From assembly GCA_963666275.2 (NCBI GenBank), contig CAXXOA010000001.1, positions 1,376,001 through 1,440,000 of the forward strand: DNA of 64,000 nt, read 5' to 3'. Positions 11,680-22,676 of this stretch are shown piece after piece (within the stretch, counting starts at the first letter, position 1; each line of letters begins with the position of its first letter). Origin of the DNA: Oceanispirochaeta sp. (lineage in GTDB: Bacteria > Spirochaetota > Spirochaetia > DSM-2461). Under the pieces are notes generated by a model, which saw only the letters and a list, made by a program, of their open reading frames with translations, was not told where the DNA came from and searched no databases. Position numbers and translations under genes: made by a program.

Positions 11680-13098
11680 GTGTATCAGTCATTTATCGGT
11701 CTAGAAATTCATATACATCTGGCTGCGGAAACCAAAGCGTTCTGCAGCTGCAAAGCCAACTACGGCGATGAAGAAAACACCAATGTCTGTCCCGTCTGTA
11801 TGGGGTTTCCCGGTGTTCTTCCCACTCTGAATGAAAAAGCCATTCAGATGTCCTACGTGGTTGCTCGGGCTCTGAACTGCGAGCTCAGCAGAAAAACCAT
11901 TTTCGAACGGAAAAACTACTTTTATCCGGACATGCCCAAGAACTACCAGATCAGTCAGTTTACCGATCCGGTAGGAGTCAACGGATATATTGATATTGAA
12001 GTAGGGGATGAGATCAAAAGGGTCAGAATCCACGATGTTCACTTTGAAGAGGATGCGGGAAAAATGATCCATGCGGGCGATATGTCTCTGCTGGACTATA
12101 ACAGAGCGGGATATCCCCTTCTTGAGATCGTAACCGAACCGGATCTTGTTGTGGGATCCGATGCGGAAGCCTTCCTGAGAAGTTTCAGAAGGATGGTCCG
12201 TTATCTGGGTGTCTGCGACGGTAACATGGAAGAGGGATCTCTCCGCTGTGACGCCAATGTTTCCATCAACCATCCCGGTGCCGGCCTGGGAAGCAAAGTT
12301 GAGATCAAGAACCTCAACTCCTCCCGGTTTGTCCGGAAAGCCCTGGACTATGAAATTGTCAGGCAGTCCGCCATGATGGATGAGAAGAAAGAAATCATTC
12401 AGGAAACAAGACTCTGGAACGAAAACAGGGATATCACTGAAAGTATGAGACGGAAGGAAGCGGCCAATGATTATCGCTATTTCCCCGAACCCGACCTTCC
12501 TCCTTTCATGCCTTCCGATGAATTCCTGAAAACAGTGGAAGACAGTCTTTGTGAACTGCCCTTTGCCAGAAAACAGCGTCTTATGAGCGGTCATGGCCTC
12601 AATTCTGAACAGGCTGAGTACGTCCACGACGAAAAATTTGTAGCCGATTTCTTTGAGCAGGCTGTTTTTCACGGAGCCGATCCTGTCCAGGTCTATTCCT
12701 GGCTCTCTTCGGATGTGAAAAAAATGCTCAACCGGACAAATATTTCACTGGAAGAGTCTCCTCTTTCAGCAGAACGTCTGGCCCGGCTGATTGCTCTGAT
12801 TGAAGAGGGACAGATCAGCGGAAAAATTGCCAAAACAGTTCTTACTCATATCTTCGATGAAGACAAGGATCCTGATGTGATCACCAGGGAGAAGGGACTT
12901 GTTCAGATTTCCGACAAAGGAGCAGTAGGTGAAATTGTCGGGAAGGTCATAGCCGAAAACCCTCAGGTTGTCGAGGCTATTAAAGGCGGAGATATGAAGC
13001 AGATGGGATTTCTTGTGGGACAGGTTATGAAAGCTTCCGGCGGAAAAGCCGCCCCTCAGGTGGTTCAGACTGTACTGAAAGAAAAAGTCCTGGGTTGA
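11680..13098 (+). CDS. gatB: Asp/Glu-tRNA amidotransferase subunit B
   Basis: IGLEIH, RKNYFYPD, LRCDANVS, YRYFPEPDLP. Confidence 0.97.
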   Translation: MYQSFIGLEIHIHLAAETKAFCSCKANYGDEENTNVCPVCMGFPGVLPTLNEKAIQMSYVVARALNCELSRKTIFERKNYFYPDMPKNYQISQFTDPVGVNGYIDIEVGDEIKRVRIHDVHFEEDAGKMIHAGDMSLLDYNRAGYPLLEIVTEPDLVVGSDAEAFLRSFRRMVRYLGVCDGNMEEGSLRCDANVSINHPGAGLGSKVEIKNLNSSRFVRKALDYEIVRQSAMMDEKKEIIQETRLWNENRDITESMRRKEAANDYRYFPEPDLPPFMPSDEFLKTVEDSLCELPFARKQRLMSGHGLNSEQAEYVHDEKFVADFFEQAVFHGADPVQVYSWLSSDVKKMLNRTNISLEESPLSAERLARLIALIEEGQISGKIAKTVLTHIFDEDKDPDVITREKGLVQISDKGAVGEIVGKVIAENPQVVEAIKGGDMKQMGFLVGQVMKASGGKAAPQVVQTVLKEKVLG

Positions 13099-13115
13099 AG
13101 AGAGGAGAAGTAAAA

Positions 13116-14387
13116 GTGCGCGTTTTAGCGAAAGATATAAAAGAGTATGCAGGAAAAGAGATTGTCCTGAGCGGATGGATTCATAGAATCCGGGAGCTGG
13201 GTGGAGTCAACTTCATTATCCTCCGGGACAGGAGCGGACAGGTGCAGCTGGTTACCAATGATGAAGTCGATCTGACTCTGGAATCTGTTGTGAATGCCAA
13301 AGGTACTGTTCAGGAGAATGATAAGGCTCCGGGAGGATATGAATTACAGCTTACAAGCCTGGATATCCTGTCTGAAGCCGCCTCGGATCTTCCCTTTCCT
13401 GTCAACCAGGATCCTGAGAATACGGGTATTGATACCATTCTGGATAACAGAATTATTGCTCTGCGCAACCCTAAAATCCTCTCTATTTTCAGGCTGCAGG
13501 CCGGTCTTGTCCGATATTTTGCCGAGTTCCTCAGGTCAAAAGATTTTACAGAGATCAAAACCAGTAAAATTGTCAGCGGCGGAACCGAAGGGGGATCAAA
13601 CCTCTTCCGTGTCGACTATTTTGACGATAAAGTCTGCCTGGCCCAGTCTCCCCAGCAGTATAAACAGGCTATGGTTTCCAGCGGACTGGAACGGGTTTTT
13701 GAAATAGGTCATGCCTACAGAGCGGAAAAACACGATACACCCCGGCATATCAATGAATATGTTTCTCTCGATATTGAGATGGGTTTTATCGAATCCGAGA
13801 AAGATCTGATGGCTCTGGAAGCGGAAATGATGGGCTTCATATTCCGTAAAGTCCGGGAGAATCATCAATCTGATCTGGAAGCCTGGGGAGCTACCACTCC
13901 CGATCCCGATAAATGCAAGGATATCCCCATCATTCCCCATGATCAGGCAAAGAAGATCGTCAGCGAAAGGATCGGACGCAGGATTTTCGAAATTAATCCA
14001 GAAGCGGAAAGAGTTATCTGTGAATGGGCGGAAGAGGAATATGGTATTCCCATGGTATTTATCAATGCTTTCCCCCGGAAAAAAAGACCCTTCTATACCT
14101 ATCCTGACGGTCTGAAAACCATGAGTTTCGACCTTATTTTCAGAGGTCTGGAAATTACAACAGGCGGCCGCCGTATCAATGAATACAAGATGATGAAAGA
14201 AACTCTGCCCAAATTCGGCATGACCGAAGAAGAGCTGGGTGACTATATCAAAATTTTCAAATACGGCTGTCCTCCCCATGGGGGTTTTGCCATCGGTCTG
14301 GAAAGGCTGACTCAGAAAATCCTGGGACTGGCGAATATCAAGGAAGCTTCCATATTCCCCCGGGACAGAAAAAGAACCACTCCCTGA
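13116..14387 (+). CDS. aspS: short archaeal-type, probably non-discriminating aspartyl-tRNA synthetase
   Basis: class IIb motifs LAQSPQ, YRAE, PPHGGFAIGLERL; no bacterial GAD insertion; GWIH and KAPGG; GTG start after AGGAG. Confidence 0.9.
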   Translation: MRVLAKDIKEYAGKEIVLSGWIHRIRELGGVNFIILRDRSGQVQLVTNDEVDLTLESVVNAKGTVQENDKAPGGYELQLTSLDILSEAASDLPFPVNQDPENTGIDTILDNRIIALRNPKILSIFRLQAGLVRYFAEFLRSKDFTEIKTSKIVSGGTEGGSNLFRVDYFDDKVCLAQSPQQYKQAMVSSGLERVFEIGHAYRAEKHDTPRHINEYVSLDIEMGFIESEKDLMALEAEMMGFIFRKVRENHQSDLEAWGATTPDPDKCKDIPIIPHDQAKKIVSERIGRRIFEINPEAERVICEWAEEEYGIPMVFINAFPRKKRPFYTYPDGLKTMSFDLIFRGLEITTGGRRINEYKMMKETLPKFGMTEEELGDYIKIFKYGCPPHGGFAIGLERLTQKILGLANIKEASIFPRDRKRTTP

Positions 14388-14434: not shown

Positions 14435-14749
14435 ATGCCCTTTCACTTTTCTAACTATCAATGAAATCATGAGTACCTTCTCAGAAGCTCTCTCTCAGAT
14501 AAACCCGAAATAATTATCAAATCTTGTATTTCTCTTTCAGTATCATTAGGACCGGTTAACCCATTTGTCAGGGGGGGCAGATTTTTTCCATCCCCCTCAG
14601 GGGCAGAATCTTTCCAGATAGGGTTTTAGAATATAACAAAAAGATATATATAATAAAATAATATGGGGGTATACAGGAATACTAATTAATAATATTGCAT
14701 ATAGATATTTCTGAAGATAATATGTTAGAAAAATGAAAGAGGTATTGCA

Positions 14750-15001
14750 ATGACAACGGAAGAACGCGCTTTTGAAGAGAATTTCAGGGAAACCACTGAC
14801 TATCTGACAGTCCGGTCAATGGGAGCCGATTTTTCAATAGAGACTGTCAGTAACGAACTGGAAGCCCTTTACAAATTCGAAGGTCTTGACTGGGTCGGAA
14901 GGGGGGAACTGGCAAATGCGGAAATTCAGGGATCCATTGTGGCGTATCAGATTTTTTTAAGAAACTGGATGGGCCGGGAAAAAAACAGGAAAACTGCCTG
15001 A
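14750..15001 (+). CDS. hypothetical protein (83 aa)
   Basis: GAGG RBS and AT-rich promoter region upstream; no recognised motif. Confidence 0.7.
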   Translation: MTTEERAFEENFRETTDYLTVRSMGADFSIETVSNELEALYKFEGLDWVGRGELANAEIQGSIVAYQIFLRNWMGREKNRKTA

Positions 15002-15066: not shown

Positions 15067-15759
15067 TCAGTTCTGCAGGGGGGAGAGTATCGTCTGGATA
15101 ATTCCTTCTGCAGTATCATCAGCAAGAGGGTGAATGATCAGCTCTACCCTGGCAGGAGATATTTTGCCGCTAGCTTCAAACATCTGTGCTGAATCCTTAA
15201 TTGTCACAGGTAGGAGAGGAACGCCTTTTTCCAGAGCCAGGCGAATACCGGCCGTATAAAACTTTCCTGGACCTTTTCCTCTGCTCCTGGTGCCTTCGGG
15301 AAAGAGCACCATAGACTGACCATTTTCCACTTTTTCAACAGCCTTTTTCAAACCTGAAATCGAACTTTCCAGGCTTTTCCGTTTTATGTAAATACATCCC
15401 AAAGCATTCATCCAGGTGCTGAGAAAAGGAACATGGGCCATTTCCATTTTACTTATAAATCCCAGCTTCCGGGGAATGCGGCTCATAAGAAGGGGGATGT
15501 CAAAATTGCTGTTATGGTTGGCAATCAGACAGAATGCTCCGTCTGAGGGGATATTTTCCTGTCCGGAAACCAGAATCTCGGATCCCGAGGTCCATATAAG
15601 ATGACGGGCCCAGAGCCTTGTGACAGAGAGCGTATATCTGTCTGTTTGAGCCGGGGCCAGCAGTTTCAGAAACATGAGAGGAATGAGAAGAAGAAGTGAA
15701 ATGGCCAGGAGAACCCACATCCAGCTGAAAAAAAGTATAGTCCGTCCCAGGTTTTTCAT
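15067..15759 (-). CDS. plsC: 1-acyl-sn-glycerol-3-phosphate acyltransferase
   Basis: NHNSNFD (HX4D) and FPEGTRS. Confidence 0.92.
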   Translation of the reverse strand: MKNLGRTILFFSWMWVLLAISLLLLIPLMFLKLLAPAQTDRYTLSVTRLWARHLIWTSGSEILVSGQENIPSDGAFCLIANHNSNFDIPLLMSRIPRKLGFISKMEMAHVPFLSTWMNALGCIYIKRKSLESSISGLKKAVEKVENGQSMVLFPEGTRSRGKGPGKFYTAGIRLALEKGVPLLPVTIKDSAQMFEASGKISPARVELIIHPLADDTAEGIIQTILSPLQN

Positions 15760-15767
15760 AGTTCTCC

Positions 15768-16418
15768 TTATCTTTCCCTGCGTTTCAGGGAAATCCTGTT
15801 TTCGCTTCCCTGAAGAAGCCTTTTGATGTTCTTATAATGGAGCAGTGTTATGATAATAGCAACTACAATGTAAAAAGAAAGATAGACAGGATTCACTGTT
15901 ATCACATCTAAAGCTCCCAGGACACTATAAAAAAAGGGAAGAGCCCAGGCGGCGCTTAAAGATGCCAGTGATACAAATTTAGTGACCAACGTGACCAGTA
16001 GAAAAACCCCCAGGCAGAAGAGGGCTCCTACAGGAAAGAGGACCGTTATTCCTCCGGCGCCGCAGGCTACGCCTTTTCCCCCTCTGAAACCGAACCAGAG
16101 GGGAAACATATGCCCTGTCATGATTGAAAGCAGCAGCACCAGGGAAAGATAGGTCTCTCCCTGATCTGCCATTTTCACAGAGGACGCAAAAAAAGGAACA
16201 AAGAGAAGAGGGATCATCCCTTTCAGAAAATCCATCAGGAGTACAGTCAGGCCGATTCCCTTTCCCAGTACTCGCAGCGCATTGGTTGCTCCGGCATTGC
16301 CACTGCCTTCTTCTCGTATATCAATCCCCCGGATGAGCTTACCCGCCATGATTGACCAGGATAGAGACCCCCATAGATAGGAAATGAGAATCGCTGCAGA
16401 AACAGGAAAAAATATCAT
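15768..16418 (-). CDS. plsY: acyl-phosphate:glycerol-3-phosphate acyltransferase
   Basis: [22 protein letters not shown]...GGKGVA, HYKNI. Confidence 0.95.
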
Positions 16419-17197
16419 TTTTTCACCGGAAGTAGCAGAAGCAGGTGAGTGCGTTCTTTGTATTTCCTGAACTCAGGATCTTTCCCGTAACGTTCTTCAG
16501 AACTTTTTTCCAGAAGAGGGATTCCACTGACAAAAAGAAGGAGCAGGGTTATGGCGACAGGTCCCAGTACGGTCAGCCATGCCAGTCCTTTCAGAGCCGG
16601 TACTGCAATGATGAAAAGTCCCCACCAGACAAGGATCTCACCAAAATAGTTGGGATGACGGGAGTACTTCCATAATCCCTGATCCATCCAGTGGCCCTTG
16701 TTGCGGGGATTCAGTCTGTACCGGAACTTCTGTCTGTCACTGATAGCTTCTATGATCAGCCCTATCAGGTAGATCACAGCTCCTGATAGGACGGGGATAC
16801 TGATTCCTATGGCGAAGGGTCTTGTAAGATAATAGGTAAAGGGCAGCATTATTACCCAGACTGCTGTTGCCTGGAGGATCCAGAACTTCAGAAACTCAAT
16901 TGGATTTCCCCTTCTCTCATCAAATCTGTGATCGCTTTTTATAGTAAGTATCCTGTAAAAGAGGTAGCTTCCCAGCCTGACGGCCCAGAGAAGAATTCCC
17001 AGGGTTACAATAATTTTTCCGGGGCTCAAAGCCTTGTCTGTTCCTATGAAAAGTATCCCCGTAATGAGGAAGAAACTCAGACTGTAGGTAAGGTCTGTTA
17101 CCTTGTCTGTTTTGAACAGGGCGGCGAAAGCATAAAAAAACATGTTGATTCCAAAACTCAATAGAAGCGTGAATAGAAAGGGGTAGGTAATCAGCAT
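16415..17197 (-). CDS. DUF1295 / steroid 5-alpha-reductase-like membrane protein
   Basis: polytopic; [29 protein letters not shown]. Confidence 0.9.
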
Positions 17198-17207
17198 TAT
17201 TTTCTCC

Positions 17208-17924
17208 TTAAAAGTAATTGTAATATATCTGGGTGTCCACAGTGGTTTTTTTTCTGCTGCTGTAGGGGTCGGGAAGAATGGTCGGTCCGTGGATTTCCAT
17301 AACCCGGCCGCTGTCTGTGTCTATTAGAAACTCAACCGGGTCAATGAACATCCCGAGAAACAGATTTTTCAGTTTCATTTCCACGCTGATCAGACCTTCA
17401 GGAGCATCGTTTCTCCCGGGGATCAGCTGAAACGGAATGATCGTCTGTCTTTCCAGGAAGGGCAGGTGAAAATCAAGAACCTCTCCTCTGATAAGCCTGT
17501 TCCTGTTCTGCTGTATAAAACCGGGAAGCTGTGGTCCAGTGAGAAGGGATGTTTCATAGGGGATCTCTCTTGATTTCTCTTTTTCATTCTGTCTGAAATA
17601 GAGGCGGAGGGAGTCTCCTTCTCTGATTATGCTTCCATAACTGTCAAGATCATTTATGGCCACTTCATAGAAATCCAGTTTTCCCTGGCTGACAGTCACT
17701 TTTTCAAAGGCTGCCTCCAGCTGGTTTTCCTTGAAATAAACATGCGAAATTTCAGATGTGTTTCCCATGCTGCGGAAAAACTCCTTCTGAACATACAGCA
17801 GCTCCCTTTCACCGTCTTTTCTGAATATCCTTCCCTCAACTGTCTGTTCCGTAGCGGCCAGGGAAAGGAGAGGGATAAGAAAAAATATGGAAATGCTAAC
17901 TATGTTATATAAAACTACTTTCAT
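17208..17924 (-). CDS. exported hypothetical protein
   Basis: signal peptide ending SLA-A; first gene of the DUF1295-plsY-plsC operon. Confidence 0.75.
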
Positions 17925-18002
17925 ATTTCATATTGTAATCAATAAAACAGAAAAATCAAATTTATTTGGAAATATAATATCATAATGATATATAATGAGC
18001 TT

Positions 18003-18887
18003 ATGGATGAGAACAAATTCGGCTATAACCTGAAATTTCTACGAAAGAAAATGGGAATGACCCAGAAGCAGCTGGGAGAACAGATCGGTGTCGGTCAGGT
18101 AGCGATAGCCAATTACGAGAAGGGACAGAGATTTCCCGGTGAAAAGAACCTTATGGATCTTGTAAAAGTTCTGGATGTCTCTCTGGACAGGTTAATGGGG
18201 CTGGACGGGTATCCAGGCGGTGTCTCTGAAGATTTAATGGAGTTTTCTGCAGAGCAGCTGTGGAACAGGCTTTTAAAGGATTCCGCAGATAGGGTTCTGG
18301 ATTACCTCCTTGCCTGGCAGAAGGACAAATCCTGGGAACTTCCCGTCCTTTATGAAAAAGTTATAACCCCTTTGCTTCTGTCTCTGGGACAGCTTTGGCT
18401 CGGGGGAAACCTGACCATTGCGGAAGAACATCTGTTAACAGGAAAAATACGCACCCTCATTATTCTCCTGTCCCATTACACATCCGACCGCAGAAAGCAT
18501 TTGAGGGAAGGGAGACGCTGGCTGGGATTATGCCCCCCCGGAGAGGATCATGATCTGGGACTTCTTATGCTTGCAGGAACTATGGAGTATGCCGGATGGG
18601 ATGTCAGAAATCTGGGAATCAATATCCCGGTTTCAGATCTTCTGCAGATTGTAGAAAGTTTCCGGCCACGGGTGGTGTCCTTTTCCTGTATCAATCCTCA
18701 CTGCCTCAACGGACTGGACAGCTATATCCGGGCTTTGAGGGAAAAATCCTCCTATTCTTTTCAGATCCAGGTGGGAGGGAGCGGAATCCATAGGGACTTC
18801 AGGGAGGAGGATTCGGTGGTGTATGCGGAAAATCTATTTGAAAGTGTAAGGCTGGCAGAAGAAACTATAGGCGGAGGTACTGTATGA
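18003..18887 (+). CDS. XRE-HTH regulator fused to a CarH/LitR-type cobalamin-binding module
   Basis: N-terminal LRKKMGMTQKQLG...IANYEKG; W-x9-EH (WLGGNLTIAEEH); EDHDLG B12 motif; Rossmann-type tail; start 17985 or 18003. Confidence 0.88.
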   Translation: MDENKFGYNLKFLRKKMGMTQKQLGEQIGVGQVAIANYEKGQRFPGEKNLMDLVKVLDVSLDRLMGLDGYPGGVSEDLMEFSAEQLWNRLLKDSADRVLDYLLAWQKDKSWELPVLYEKVITPLLLSLGQLWLGGNLTIAEEHLLTGKIRTLIILLSHYTSDRRKHLREGRRWLGLCPPGEDHDLGLLMLAGTMEYAGWDVRNLGINIPVSDLLQIVESFRPRVVSFSCINPHCLNGLDSYIRALREKSSYSFQIQVGGSGIHRDFREEDSVVYAENLFESVRLAEETIGGGTV

Positions 18888-19423
18888 AAGCAAAGGTGTT
18901 TCTCTTTTTACTTCTGGGCAGTTTCTCTCTTTTTGCGGGGGGGAAAACAGAGGTTGTTCATCAGACCGTAGACTACGTTGATCTGGAACAATTTTCCGGA
19001 GACTGGTATGTGATAGCCCTGATTCCCACGGCTTTTGAGAAAAAAGCGGTCAACGGGGTTGAAAATTATACCCTCAATCCCGATGGAACCATCCGGGTCA
19101 GATATACTTTCCGCAAAGGCAGTGTCCAGGGAAAAGAAAAGACAATGTTCCAGAAAGGCTGGGTCTATAACAGCGAAACAAACGCCGAATGGCGAGTCCG
19201 GCCTTTGTGGCCTCTGAAACTTCCCTACTATATCCTGGATCTGGCAGAGGACTACTCCTACACTATAATCGGAACAGATAACTACGATTATCTGTGGATT
19301 ATGGCAAGAGAACCGATCATGGACAAATCCCTTCTGGAAAATCTGATCGAGAAAATGGTTGAAATCGGCTATGAAAAAGATAAAATTTTATACATGACAC
19401 AATCCTGGGGAGAAGCACAATGA
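18884..19423 (+). CDS. Blc-like lipocalin
   Basis: DLEQFSGDWY (GxWY), YYILDL, YLWIMAR; signal peptide without lipobox Cys. Confidence 0.9.
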   Translation: MKAKVFLFLLLGSFSLFAGGKTEVVHQTVDYVDLEQFSGDWYVIALIPTAFEKKAVNGVENYTLNPDGTIRVRYTFRKGSVQGKEKTMFQKGWVYNSETNAEWRVRPLWPLKLPYYILDLAEDYSYTIIGTDNYDYLWIMAREPIMDKSLLENLIEKMVEIGYEKDKILYMTQSWGEAQ

Positions 19424-21234
19424 CTTCAAGCATCAATGGGTATCATCTCTATCACAGTTTTTTAGCAGGTTATATCAGTGTTCTTGAAAAAAAAGCCGAG
19501 ATGAACAGGATCAATGTTTTTCCTGTGGCTGACGGAGACACAGGCAATAATATTACAAGGACCATCCGTTCGGTTGTTCAGGGGGCTTCCTCCCGGAAGT
19601 CCGTTGATATTATGCTCAAAGATTTTGCTGATAAATCTCTGGAGGGAGCCAGAGGGAATTCAGGGATGATCCTTTCCCAGTTTATTACAGGTTTCTCACG
19701 GACCGGCAGGGGAAAAAGCCGTATGACCCTGAAGGAGTTCGGTCATGGGGTTAATGAAGCGGTAGATTATGCCTACACGGCACTTGAGGAGCCTCAGGAA
19801 GGAACGATTCTGACTGTTCTCAGGATCTGGGCCAATGCGGTTTATGAGAAGAGTCTGAGTGAAAATTCCTTCAAAGAGGTGATGAGCCACGGTTTTGAAG
19901 CGGCCAAACAGGCCCTGAGAAAAACCACGGAACAGCTGATTGTACTCAGGGATAATCATGTGGTTGACGCAGGTGCCCTGGGTTTCGTGAGTTTCCTCGA
20001 GGGGATCGAGAGGTTTCATCAGAAAGGGCCTGTTCCTCAAAAACTGCGAAAGAGTCTTAAATCGGAAACCCTTACAGCCGGAACAGTACTCAGTCATAAG
20101 GAAAAAGCCGTTTCCAGTACTCTGACCTACAGGTACTGTACGGAACTCCTGCTGGAGAATCCCCGGATAGAGGCTTCCAGACTCCGGAAGAAGCTCAAAA
20201 CCTACGGAGACTCTCTGATCGTCGGAGAGGGGGACAGCAGGATAAGGGTTCATATCCATACGGATGATCCGCCCTCTCTGGCGGCCTGTCTGAACCGGTA
20301 CGGCAGCATCATCCAGCAGAAAGTGGACGATATGTTCAGGCAGCAGCAGATTGTGAACAGCCGGAGAGGAAATGTGGCAGTAGTCACGGATTCCATCGCG
20401 GATATTCCCCTCTCTCTTCAGGATGAGCTGCAGATTCACAGGATCCCGCTCTCTCTCCTGTGGGGGGAAGAAGAGTACCTGGACAGACTGACAATCTCTC
20501 CCGAGGAGTTCTACAGGCAGCAGCAGATCCGTTCGGACTTTCCCGGCAGCTCCCTGCCGGATCTGCAGAGGATCGACGCTCTCTTCTCCTATCTGGCGGA
20601 GCATTACGATCATATCCTTGTCCTTCCCGTGGCCAGTGCCTTGAGCGGTACCTTTCAGCAGATGCTTCAGGGAGCGGAACCCTATAATCGGGATGGGAAA
20701 AGAATTGCCGTGGTAGATACAAGGCTCAATTCTGCCGCTCAGGGACTGCTTGTGGCGGAAGTCGCCCGGGAAGCTCTGAAAGGCGCCTCTCTGGAGGAAC
20801 TGATATCTCTGGCTGAAAACCTCCGGGAGAGGGTCAAAATCTATGTAAGCCTGAGTACCTTCAAATTCATGGTCAAAGGGGGGCGGGTCAGCCCTCTGAA
20901 AGGTTTTATTGCCACAGCCCTGAATCTGAAACCTATTGTAACCCTTGATGAACAGGGCAGGGGAAAGGCCATGGATAAAGCATTTTCCAGGCAGGGCCTT
21001 CTGAAAAAAATAACCCTCCTTCTCAAAGAAACCCAGAAAACCCGGGGCATAGAAAAATACTGTGTCGTCCATGCTCTTTCTTCTGATAAAGCCGAAGAGT
21101 TTGCCCGGATTGTCAGGGGTATTGCCGACAGGGAGCCCGAGTATATAACCTCCATCTCTCCGATTGTGGGGATGCATTCCGGGAAAGGTGCTGTGGCTAT
21201 CGGTGTTATAGAGGGGGTCAGGAAGTCATCCTGA
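19420..21234 (+). CDS. DAK2 (FakA-like) plus DegV (FakB-like) fusion, putative fatty acid kinase
   Basis: [25 protein letters not shown]; then VTDSIAD, LSGT, GGRV, GMHSG. Confidence 0.9.
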
Positions 21235-21293
21235 ATCCCGATTTCTGCAACCCTCTATTGATCAGAGGGAAAGACAGGTTTATAATGCCTCTC

Positions 21294-22676
21294 ATGATGC
21301 CAGATACGATAAAACAGATTCTTCAGCAAAATGATAAAATAGGAGAGACCCTTACTGTTCAGGGATGGGTCCGGACCAAACGGGATACCAAAGAGATCGC
21401 TTTTATAGCTCTGAATGACGGTTCCTGTCTGGGAAATATACAGATTATTGCCGACAAGACAGTCATTCCGGAAGATGTCCTCCACAGATTAACCACCGGG
21501 GCCAGCTGTTCCGTACAGGGAATCCTGGTGGAGTCACCGGCCAAAGGGCAGTCTGTGGAAGTACAGGCTTCGTCCATTGAGATCCTGGGCGACTGTCCGG
21601 GGGACTATCCTCTCCAGAAAAAACGGCACTCCATGGAATTCCTCAGGGAAATCGGACACCTCAGGGCCAGAACAAATACTTTCGGTGCCGTAGGTCGAAT
21701 CCGGAATGCCCTGACCCAGGCTGTTCACAGCTACTTTCAGGAGAATGGATTTTTCAATGTGCATACACCGATTATCACGGCCAACGACTGCGAAGGGGCG
21801 GGGGAGATGTTTCAGGTAACCACTCTCCCTTTTGAAACTTTTGACAGCTCAAAGGGAGTGGACTACAGCCGGGATTTCTTCGGTAAAAAAGCCTCTCTCA
21901 CGGTCAGCGGACAGCTTTCAGCCGAAACCTATGCCACCGCTCTGGGAAGGGTCTATACCTTCGGTCCCACCTTCCGGGCGGAGAACTCCAATACCTCCCG
22001 GCATCTGGCCGAGTTCTGGATGATCGAACCGGAAATGTCTTTCTGCGATATCAACGGCGATATGGATCTGGCCGAAGAGTTTCTCAAGTATGTTCTGGCC
22101 TATGTGCTGGAAAACTGTGCAGAAGATATGGCTTTTTTCAATCAGTGGGTTCAGAAGGGAATCATCGACGATATGAAGGCTGTTATAGCCGCGGATTTCA
22201 CAAGGATCAGCTATACAAAAGCCATTGAAGACCTGGAGTCATCAGGGCAGACATTTGAATTCCCCGTTTCCTGGGGGATAGATCTGGCATCGGAACATGA
22301 AAAATACCTGACAGAGCATGTGTATAAAGGCCCGGTGATCATCACGGACTATCCCAAAGAGATCAAAGCCTTCTATATGAAGCTCAATGCCGATGGAAAG
22401 ACAGTCCGCGCCATGGATGTTCTGGTTCCGCGGCTGGGTGAGATCATCGGAGGAAGTGAACGGGAGAATGATTACGATACTCTTGTGAAACGCATCCGCG
22501 AAATGGGACTGAATGAAGAGGACTACTGGTGGTATCTGGACCTGAGAAAATACGGATCCGTCCCCCATGCGGGATTCGGTCTCGGTTTTGAAAGACTTAT
22601 TCAGTATGTGACAGGAATGGGTAATATCCGGGATGTCATTCCCTATGCCCGTTCTGCCAGGAACTGTGAATTTTAA
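21294..22676 (+). CDS. asnS: asparagine--tRNA ligase
   Basis: [40 protein letters not shown]. Confidence 0.97.

Follow-up and report, generated by a model that had tools for sequence, protein, structure and literature searches.

What a cobalamin-dependent photoreceptor would control in an anaerobe, with no carotenoid genes beside it, is the question raised by a divergent locus of Oceanispirochaeta sp. (GCA_963666275.2, contig CAXXOA010000001.1). The locus was found at positions 15067-21234 of a 64,000-nt stretch of that contig, called the window below, and a regulator joining an XRE (HTH_3) DNA-binding domain to a cobalamin domain was placed there among genes for a one-chain fatty acid kinase and the acyltransferase PlsY (Table 1). 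The window genome (G000; 5.27 Mb) was 97% complete, and members of Oceanispirochaeta are anaerobic fermenters (PMC11129491). Relatives and loci are cited by number where they have to be told apart.

A preliminary description had arranged seven open reading frames in two divergent operons, with 4-nt overlaps at 18884 and 19420. Position and strand of each gene were confirmed and both overlaps were real; a third 4-nt overlap was located at 16415-16418, the remaining intergenic gaps measured 8 and 10 nt, and 60 nt separated the divergent operons. Four operator-like palindromes and an 83-aa gene at 14750-15001 had been overlooked. This candidate operator is the main new result. By comparison with known systems, the locus is well supported as a putative case of CarH-type control with a new output. 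The account we favour, with confidence somewhat better than even, is an accessory fatty-acid-salvage module that would be repressed in the dark by the B12-loaded regulator and that, once light lifts the repression, would rebuild membrane damaged by light.

Operator-like palindrome and regulator

The palindrome, WWATAWC-N5-GWTATWW, was located on three promoters, those of the two operons and that of the 83-aa gene. Regulator promoters of relatives had in common a 7-5-7 inverted repeat some 7 nt upstream of the start codon, and in G003, G009 and G023 the palindrome sat between a TTGAC box and a -10 box. A matrix was built using 11 checked sites from relatives only. Genome-wide, 63 sites scored above 10 bits, and the four locus sites ranked 1, 3, 21 and 42, three of the four overlapping predicted promoters (matches at 14625-14654, 17967-17996 and, on the minus strand for the left operon, 17959-17932).

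For the shuffle test, 20 regions were each compared with 1000 dinucleotide shuffles, the matrix being trained each time without the genome under test. Scores of ≤2/1000 were obtained for 10 of the 20 regions, the positive regions having been picked after hits were already seen: both window regions (0/1000 for 14631-14649, 2/1000 for 17975-17993), the G004 regulator, the 83-aa gene in three relatives (G004, G012 and G017), and the module promoters of G012, G013, G017 and G019, none of which adjoins a regulator. The test was not passed by the module promoters of G001, G002, G015, G006, G030, G035 and L088, nor was an operator found by it upstream of the 83-aa gene in G014, G019 and G023. G001, G002 and G015 are genomes in which no regulator was found, and the G006 regulator is of MerR type. 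Of 13 promoters examined, 7 had a second site at a distance of 39-41 nt, a paired spacing as would be expected of a dimer of dimers. The window's two sites before the 83-aa gene were 61 nt apart, as were the two before its orthologue in G004.

The regulator had been described as a B12-photoreceptor type, and this was borne out by a full light-sensing signature. The four elements that define light-responsive cobalamin-binding domains in the SignatureFinder set (GxxW, EH, GxxH and GxxxP; PMC11796333) were all present (G135-W138, E148-H149, G186-H189 and G211-P215), and G135, W138, E148, H149, H189, G211 and P215 were invariant across 16 aligned sequences. Wx9EH and ExH are hallmarks of CarH homologues (PMC8156234). 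The Wx9EH motif, which caps the adenosyl group, was read as W138...E148 H149, and the E/DxHxxG cobalamin-binding motif as GEDHDLG at 186, within a Rossmann domain above the PF02310 cut-off. The best PDB match of the cobalamin domain was a tested photoreceptor, CtMerR (8JBS). The N-terminus was HTH_3/XRE and a MerR-type winged helix was absent; NF052513 matched residues 123-284 alone (52.4 bits, cut-off 400).

The ATG at 18003 is a more likely true start for the regulator than 17985, because the start codons of relatives' regulators fall about 7 nt after the palindrome. Two cobalamin adenosyltransferases were encoded in the window genome. The XRE-cobalamin architecture was also present in anaerobic Firmicutes; in a 350-genome phylum sample no full-length XRE-B12 proteins were found, the matches being to the cobalamin domain only.

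The 83-aa gene, whose product belongs to no known family, had the genome's best operator match, and in G004 it adjoined a second regulator copy. Homologues were present in 11/37 family genomes, and matches in the Atlas were unnamed Spirochaetota clusters. An antirepressor role is not claimed, since homologues also occur in genomes, such as G014, in which no regulator was found. In G008 a strong match to the pattern was discarded; it lay at an unrelated TetR-like gene within a G+C-rich stretch. Three TGTATAAT repeats, spaced 11-12 nt apart, preceded the G007 MerR-B12 gene (L035:6020-6145) and resemble a CarH direct-repeat operator.

The acyl route and its accessory status

DegV took the place of the FakA C-terminal docking domain in the 604-aa fusion: residues 319-598 formed a full DegV domain (227 bits), FakA-like_C reached 25.7 bits only, and NF038248 and TIGR03599 were below cut-off, so that the protein was classed as a FakA-FakB fusion and not a canonical FakA. 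The nucleotide site and Cys-His-His triad named for FakA (Asn32, Asp38, Asp40, Thr41, Asn82 and Asp185; PMC9136124) were found as N32, D38, D40, T41, N80 and D183 and as C240, H278 and H280. The DegV part scored 240 bits against TIGR00762 (cut-off 99.7) and had GGR at 487-489, R489 being equivalent to Arg173 of FakB1 by alignments to other DegV chains. N32, D38, D40, T41, D183, C240, H278, H280 and R489 were invariant in 17 aligned fusions and N80 was kept in at least 90%. With active-site residues kept, the fusion enzymes look intact.

PlsY had motifs at residues 38, 111 and 194, which we take to be the cytoplasmic patterns of the family. The locus PlsC had NHNSNFD and FPEGTRS motifs and scored 102.7 bits against TIGR00530 (cut-off 102.95). 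The window genome also encoded an acyl-CoA ligase, FabF-type synthases and a second PlsC that scored above the TIGR00530 cut-off; no DAK2 or DegV gene besides the fusion was found in it, and plsY was single-copy.

PlsX was found in none of the 25 family genomes (the window genome and 24 relatives), with the control positive in 9/14 genomes. The fusion would therefore be the only known acyl-phosphate source, and the route would bypass the acyl-ACP (acyl carrier protein) pathway and be limited to position 1. PlsC uses acyl-ACP, and acyl-phosphate gets to position 2 via PlsX only (PMC12594616); because of this and the missing PlsX, salvaged chains would reach position 1 only, and the locus would not be a self-contained path to phosphatidic acid. 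Its description as a complete fatty-acid-to-phosphatidic-acid locus was an overstatement, plsC moreover being at the locus in 3/17 genomes.

Synteny was conserved beyond what chance would give. The fusion was present in 17 of 25 family genomes and PlsY in those same 17 (the window genome and 16/24 relatives), the other 8/24 relatives lacking both together. In 15/17 genomes no more than 7 kb separated plsY from the fusion, the other two being interrupted by contig ends, and the identical divergent seven-gene layout was found in G003. DUF1295 was present in 16/24 relatives, 15 of them shared with the fusion/PlsY set, and lay within the module in 14/17 genomes, plus one on a split contig. The lipocalin adjoined the fusion in 11/17, and the exported protein was counted in 9/17. 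Genes flanking the module differed among most genomes, and the G+C content of the locus was that of the genome.

A 300-aa acyltransferase (G000:C2:1679312-1680211; L120:1186-2088), below the Pfam cut-off and retrieved by a loose PF01553 search, was present in 24/25 family genomes and is likely the housekeeping acyl-ACP first acylation step. A PF14829 search for plastid-type glycerol-3-phosphate acyltransferase (GPAT) was uninformative, its controls being silent. Because the eight relatives without plsY and fusion all keep the GPAT-like gene, plsY and the fusion would not be the constitutive route, and a housekeeping reading of the sole plsY was rejected. By the preliminary description itself, it would have counted against that reading if these were the only constitutive copies of plsY and plsC; no other plsY was present, yet the module is accessory and the second PlsC is encoded elsewhere.

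Outside the family, about 25 full-length fusions were counted in a 351-genome phylum sample. Of the 19 loci inspected in other spirochaete families, DUF1295 adjoined the fusion in 4 and plsY in 4. For a tree of 29 fusions, rooted at the midpoint and so with no order implied, L155 was deepest in a 19-row group (94/98).

Structure models were used for two further products. Blc-type lipocalins bind fatty acids and lysolipids, and Blc is reportedly a heme binder; for the window lipocalin the Blc model match was below cut-off. The exported protein was modelled as an open beta-barrel (predicted local distance difference test, pLDDT, 89.9), with structural matches to an axonemal chain (Z 13.7, the best), DUF1849 (11.9), DUF1089 (9.1) and LolA (9.0; root-mean-square deviation, rmsd, 4.7), non-LolA barrels scoring similarly or higher, and with DUF3108-like clusters in the Atlas. 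A periplasmic lipid carrier is possible on this model. The DUF1295 model (pLDDT 87.8) matched over its full length the steroid 5-alpha-reductase PbSRD5A (Z 15.1, rmsd 4.0, 214 aligned) and a sterol reductase (Z 15.0, rmsd 4.3, 237 aligned) and, less well, ICMT (Z 12.5), and the weak sequence matches were all reductases. As modelled, DUF1295 is likely a reductase of an activated C=C bond in lipid, although the ICMT match would also allow SAM methyltransferase chemistry in place of NADPH-dependent reduction. A fungal protein of similar kind acts as an ene-reductase (PMC8597850), and in Chlamydomonas singlet oxygen induces a DUF1295 gene (PMC4067076).

Variants of the module were also recorded. 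A second module of separate degV, fakA and plsY genes with a ferredoxin-reductase-like gene was present in G005, G007, G009 and G015 (L037:12666-18301, L081, L082); it included a CrtI-like oxidoreductase in G015 and abutted the first module in G009. In two module versions (L080:7945-8655, L155:9309-9950) plsY was separated from lipocalin or DUF1295 by a HAD phosphatase, which could convert phosphatidate onward to diacylglycerol. In G004 (L048, L075) the fusion was in several frames and the module was spread over two contig starts, which may be an assembly error.

Table 1. Genes and operator-like sites of the locus, in window coordinates
Feature	Position	Strand	Basis
Palindrome ATATAAC-N5-GATATAT, spacer of predicted sigma-70 promoter of 83-aa gene	14631..14649	.	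rank 1, 20.0 bits
Second, weaker operator-like site, downstream of first	14692..14710	.	rank 21
83-aa conserved spirochaete protein, likely regulon member	14750..15001	+	operator upstream; without Pfam match
PlsC-type acyltransferase, optional module member	15067..15759	-	PF01553 99.5 bits
PlsY, acyl-phosphate:glycerol-3-phosphate acyltransferase	15768..16418	-	TIGR00023 163.5 bits (cut-off 137.2)
DUF1295 membrane enzyme, steroid-reductase/ICMT fold	16415..17197	-	Pfam 222 bits
Exported 238-aa all-beta protein, LolA/LolB-like shape	17208..17924	-	without Pfam match; structure model
Weaker operator-like site over left operon's predicted -10 box and start codon	17923..17941	.	rank 42, 10.5 bits
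Operator-like palindrome, spacer and -10 box of right operon's predicted promoter	17975..17993	.	rank 3, 15.5 bits
XRE-cobalamin-domain regulator	17985..18887	+	HTH_3 + B12-binding
Exported Blc-like lipocalin	18884..19423	+	Lipocalin_2, PF08212 118 bits
FakA-FakB fusion (one-chain fatty acid kinase)	19420..21234	+	Dak2 + FakA-like_M + DegV

Light association, mechanism and rival explanations

The fusion was tied to a CarH-type protein in 14/17 fusion genomes: the XRE regulator was inside the module in 10; in 3 it lay apart from the module, next to an RND pump, and the module retained the operator; and in 1 a canonical MerR-B12 (MerR-CarH) protein headed the operon. A class II photolyase directly followed the fusion in G019 and G023, and RudS, which belongs to light-responsive operons (PMC11417400), or fasciclin adjoined in G007, G008, G015, G019 and G023. 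An XRE-B12 homologue was inside a crtI/lycopene cyclase cluster in G033. Among the best 60 of 80 loci in a metagenome survey of the regulator, 17 had photolyase, carotenoid, tocopherol-cyclase or pyrimidine-dimer-glycosylase neighbours (9 of the 17 forming one close-kin group), 4 had module genes (the whole set in L155), 4 RND pumps and 6 chemoreceptors; light genes were at 0/20 weaker HTH-only loci, a small control set and much shorter in total. The locus indeed had no carotenoid genes, and a search of the window genome (97% complete) found no phytoene synthase either. Heliorhodopsin was found in 0/25 family genomes and 2/41 overall. The probable dark repression of a fatty-acid-salvage module points to membrane repair rather than pigments as the light protection.

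From the gene content, motifs, operator conservation and distribution observed, we infer each functional step as follows. Adenosyl-B12 would cause the regulator to oligomerise on paired palindromes, blocking both promoters including its own, and light would break the Co-C bond and free them. Thermus CarH requires oxygen for effective monomerisation (PMC11796333); if disassembly here were likewise oxygen-dependent, the regulator would report light and oxygen jointly. The lipocalin and LolA-like protein may ferry fatty acids or lysolipids through the periplasm. The fusion would produce acyl-phosphate and PlsY would place the acyl chain on position 1 of glycerol-3-phosphate, as family knowledge and the intact active sites suggest, with PlsC, at the locus or elsewhere, filling position 2 from acyl-ACP or acyl-CoA. 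DUF1295 might reduce an activated double bond of oxidised or incoming lipid, the weakest of these steps.

Several results weigh against this account. Leu139 occupies the Thermus CarH bis-His position, a position that varies among functional photoreceptors (PMC11796333). Fusion, plsY and DUF1295 were kept with neither regulator nor operator found in 3/17 genomes (G001, G002 and G015, the last only 74% complete). In the fusion tree, regulator-less G001 and G002 were sister to regulated G009 (100/99) and had flanks in common with it, which implies that the regulator was lost and that the core outlasts its control. No B12 regulator or photolyase was found within about 5.5 kb at the 19 fusion loci of other spirochaete families. 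The sole PDB match of the 300-aa acyltransferase was a chloroplast glycerol-3-phosphate acyltransferase, weak at E 0.01, and the gene was not found in G004 when the 24 relatives were searched. For the operator, the degenerate pattern was not enriched (4-5 per genome, 2-7 for the reversed control) and the rank-2 site, C1:871646, was not conserved in 11 loci of 9 relatives; a high matrix score alone therefore proves nothing. No operator was found at the window genome's photolyase, RudS or RND genes. The late choice of shuffle regions, the kinship among metagenome loci and the small control count on the same side. A genome-wide regulon was rejected on the pattern counts, the unconserved rank-2 site and the genes without an operator, a barrel-like gene of the window genome also among them; as predicted from its sites, the regulon of the palindrome is small.

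The rival that survives best is nutritional salvage, by which the fusion, PlsY and DUF1295 would make economical use of environmental fatty acids and the photoreceptor would merely tune them, repair not being the purpose. Fak is known for salvage (PMC12594616), and both the regulator-less cores and the phylum-wide fusions, with no photoreceptor near the 19 inspected, fit it; it is nevertheless unlikely given that 14/17 genomes tie the fusion to a CarH-type regulator with one of two different DNA-binding domains, that the module operator was retained after the regulator had moved away, and that photolyase shares the operon in two genomes.

An extension of the favoured account was also considered, and is a shade less probable than nutritional salvage. 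The regulator would be a light-and-oxygen coincidence detector for importing neighbours' protective fatty acids (furan fatty acids, for example) into position 1 without PlsX, the independent wiring of Fak/DegV-DUF1295 to XRE-B12, MerR-CarH and heliorhodopsin marking a widespread photoprotection pathway. Genes for de novo furan or cyclopropane lipids were not found (DUF1365 in 0/41 genomes; CMAS none in the window genome). If true, the pathway would be both widespread and unrecognised.

Detoxification first, in which light would induce removal of photosensitiser or oxidised lipid (lipocalin binding, DUF1295 reducing, RND exporting) and the fusion and PlsY would recycle the cell's own acyl chains, was judged improbable, just below that extension. 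RND genes adjoined the regulator or module in G003, G012, G013, G017, G019, G021, G022, G023, G025 and G030, and the modelled enone-reductase fold of DUF1295 and its singlet-oxygen induction in Chlamydomonas (PMC4067076) are in keeping with it; the module, however, had no lipase, the window genome's RND pump was on another contig without an operator, and the lipid-building genes were the most conserved ones.

Least probable of all, and very doubtful, is a B12-availability switch, a cobalamin sensor in dark sediment that would bind DNA only with adenosylcobalamin and turn the module on when B12 is scarce: CarH-type repression does depend on the cofactor (PMC8156234), the window genome's photolyase was without an operator and some homologues adjoined chemoreceptors (6/60) or RND pumps (4/60) and not light genes, but B12 has no evident metabolic link to acyl-phosphate, photolyase and carotenoid genes neighbour other homologues, and the genome encodes two adenosyltransferases.

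Known systems and neighbouring loci

CarH and class I LitR (Thermus thermophilus CarH 5C8D, CtMerR 8JBS) have the same four-helix bundle and Rossmann cobalamin domain, Wx9EH and ExH, and likewise an operator over the promoter in an autoregulated layout. The Oceanispirochaeta regulator differs in its XRE HTH_3 domain, where CarH has a MerR winged helix, in a 19-bp inverted repeat in place of tandem 11-bp direct repeats, in Leu139 in place of the bis-His residue, and in its predicted lipid-salvage gene targets, phytoene synthase not being found. Firmicutes FakAB with PlsX/PlsY/PlsC is alike in all FakA nucleotide-site and Cys-His-His residues, the FakB catalytic Arg and PlsY, whereas here the kinase is one chain in which FakB replaces the FakA C-terminal docking domain, PlsX was not found, the route is accessory beside a likely acyl-ACP GPAT, and a photoreceptor-type regulator is present in a diderm host with predicted periplasmic carriers.

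Heliorhodopsins adjoin DegV, Dak2-DegV fusions, DUF2177 and DUF1295, and light-dependent membrane repair has been proposed for them (bioRxiv 10.1101/2021.02.16.431466); the available part of that preprint mentions neither plsY nor transcriptional control. The light sensor, DegV or Dak2-DegV, DUF1295 and repair hypothesis are common to both; a transcription factor whose operator can be defined, PlsY as the downstream step, the diderm host and the lack of heliorhodopsin in the family (0/25) are particular to the window locus. A B12-independent LitR governs photolyase and a furan fatty acid synthase, ufaM (PMC9758184). The Pseudomonas class II LitR regulon (photolyase, RudS, UfaM) is similar in that a CarH-family protein controls photolyase, RudS and a gene for membrane lipid, carotenoids being absent, but its LitR, whose B12 domain is not complete, takes its switching signal from a LOV protein, and its protective lipid is made de novo.

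The statement that no description of this combination exists was consequently too strong, given the light-DegV-DUF1295 link and LitR control of lipid genes in those two sources. HTH-fused light-responsive cobalamin domains have been listed, 'XRE' and 'Spiroch' being absent from the main text as available (PMC11796333). The literature searched, which did not cover subscription journals and supplements, gave no account of a Fak-PlsY regulon or of an XRE-B12 regulator and its palindrome, and heliorhodopsin Dataset S3 and Fig. S10 and the SignatureFinder network may list XRE-B12/plsY neighbours.

The locus offers a defined putative circuit (protein, cofactor, 19-bp operator and targets) for a B12 photoreceptor unlike CarH in DNA-binding domain and symmetry, relevant to photoreceptor mechanism and to green-light optogenetics. 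It would shift fatty acid kinase, with its nutritional function in Gram-positives, to a diderm in which its role is likely stress-regulated, and it provides an independent handle on the unexplained DegV-DUF1295-light link of heliorhodopsin loci, because PlsY and the absence of PlsX fix the destination of the acyl chain.

The locus was bracketed by aspS and asnS-type synthetase genes, the class II (Asp/Asn) tRNA synthetase genes lying at window positions 13095-14387 and 21258-22676. Upstream of the module were genes that we take to be gatCAB-like.

Elsewhere, a spirochaete heliorhodopsin was two genes from a photolyase (L271, G035:C18), in a genome that also had a fusion-plsY-DUF1295 module. 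The XRE-B12 regulator was beside chemoreceptor genes on low-GC metagenome contigs (L165, L166, L191, L193, L194 and L195), hinting at light-controlled chemotaxis. At L169:6998-11186 and its kin (L167-L201) it was convergent with tocopherol-cyclase-like, class II photolyase and barrel-like exported genes; the barrel-like gene also adjoined the module or regulator in G003, G012, G017 and G021, and the window-genome copy was at C1:2240296. At L177, L189, L190 and L196 the regulator was divergent from a pyrimidine dimer DNA glycosylase gene, next to carotenoid genes, and L177 had two regulator copies in tandem.

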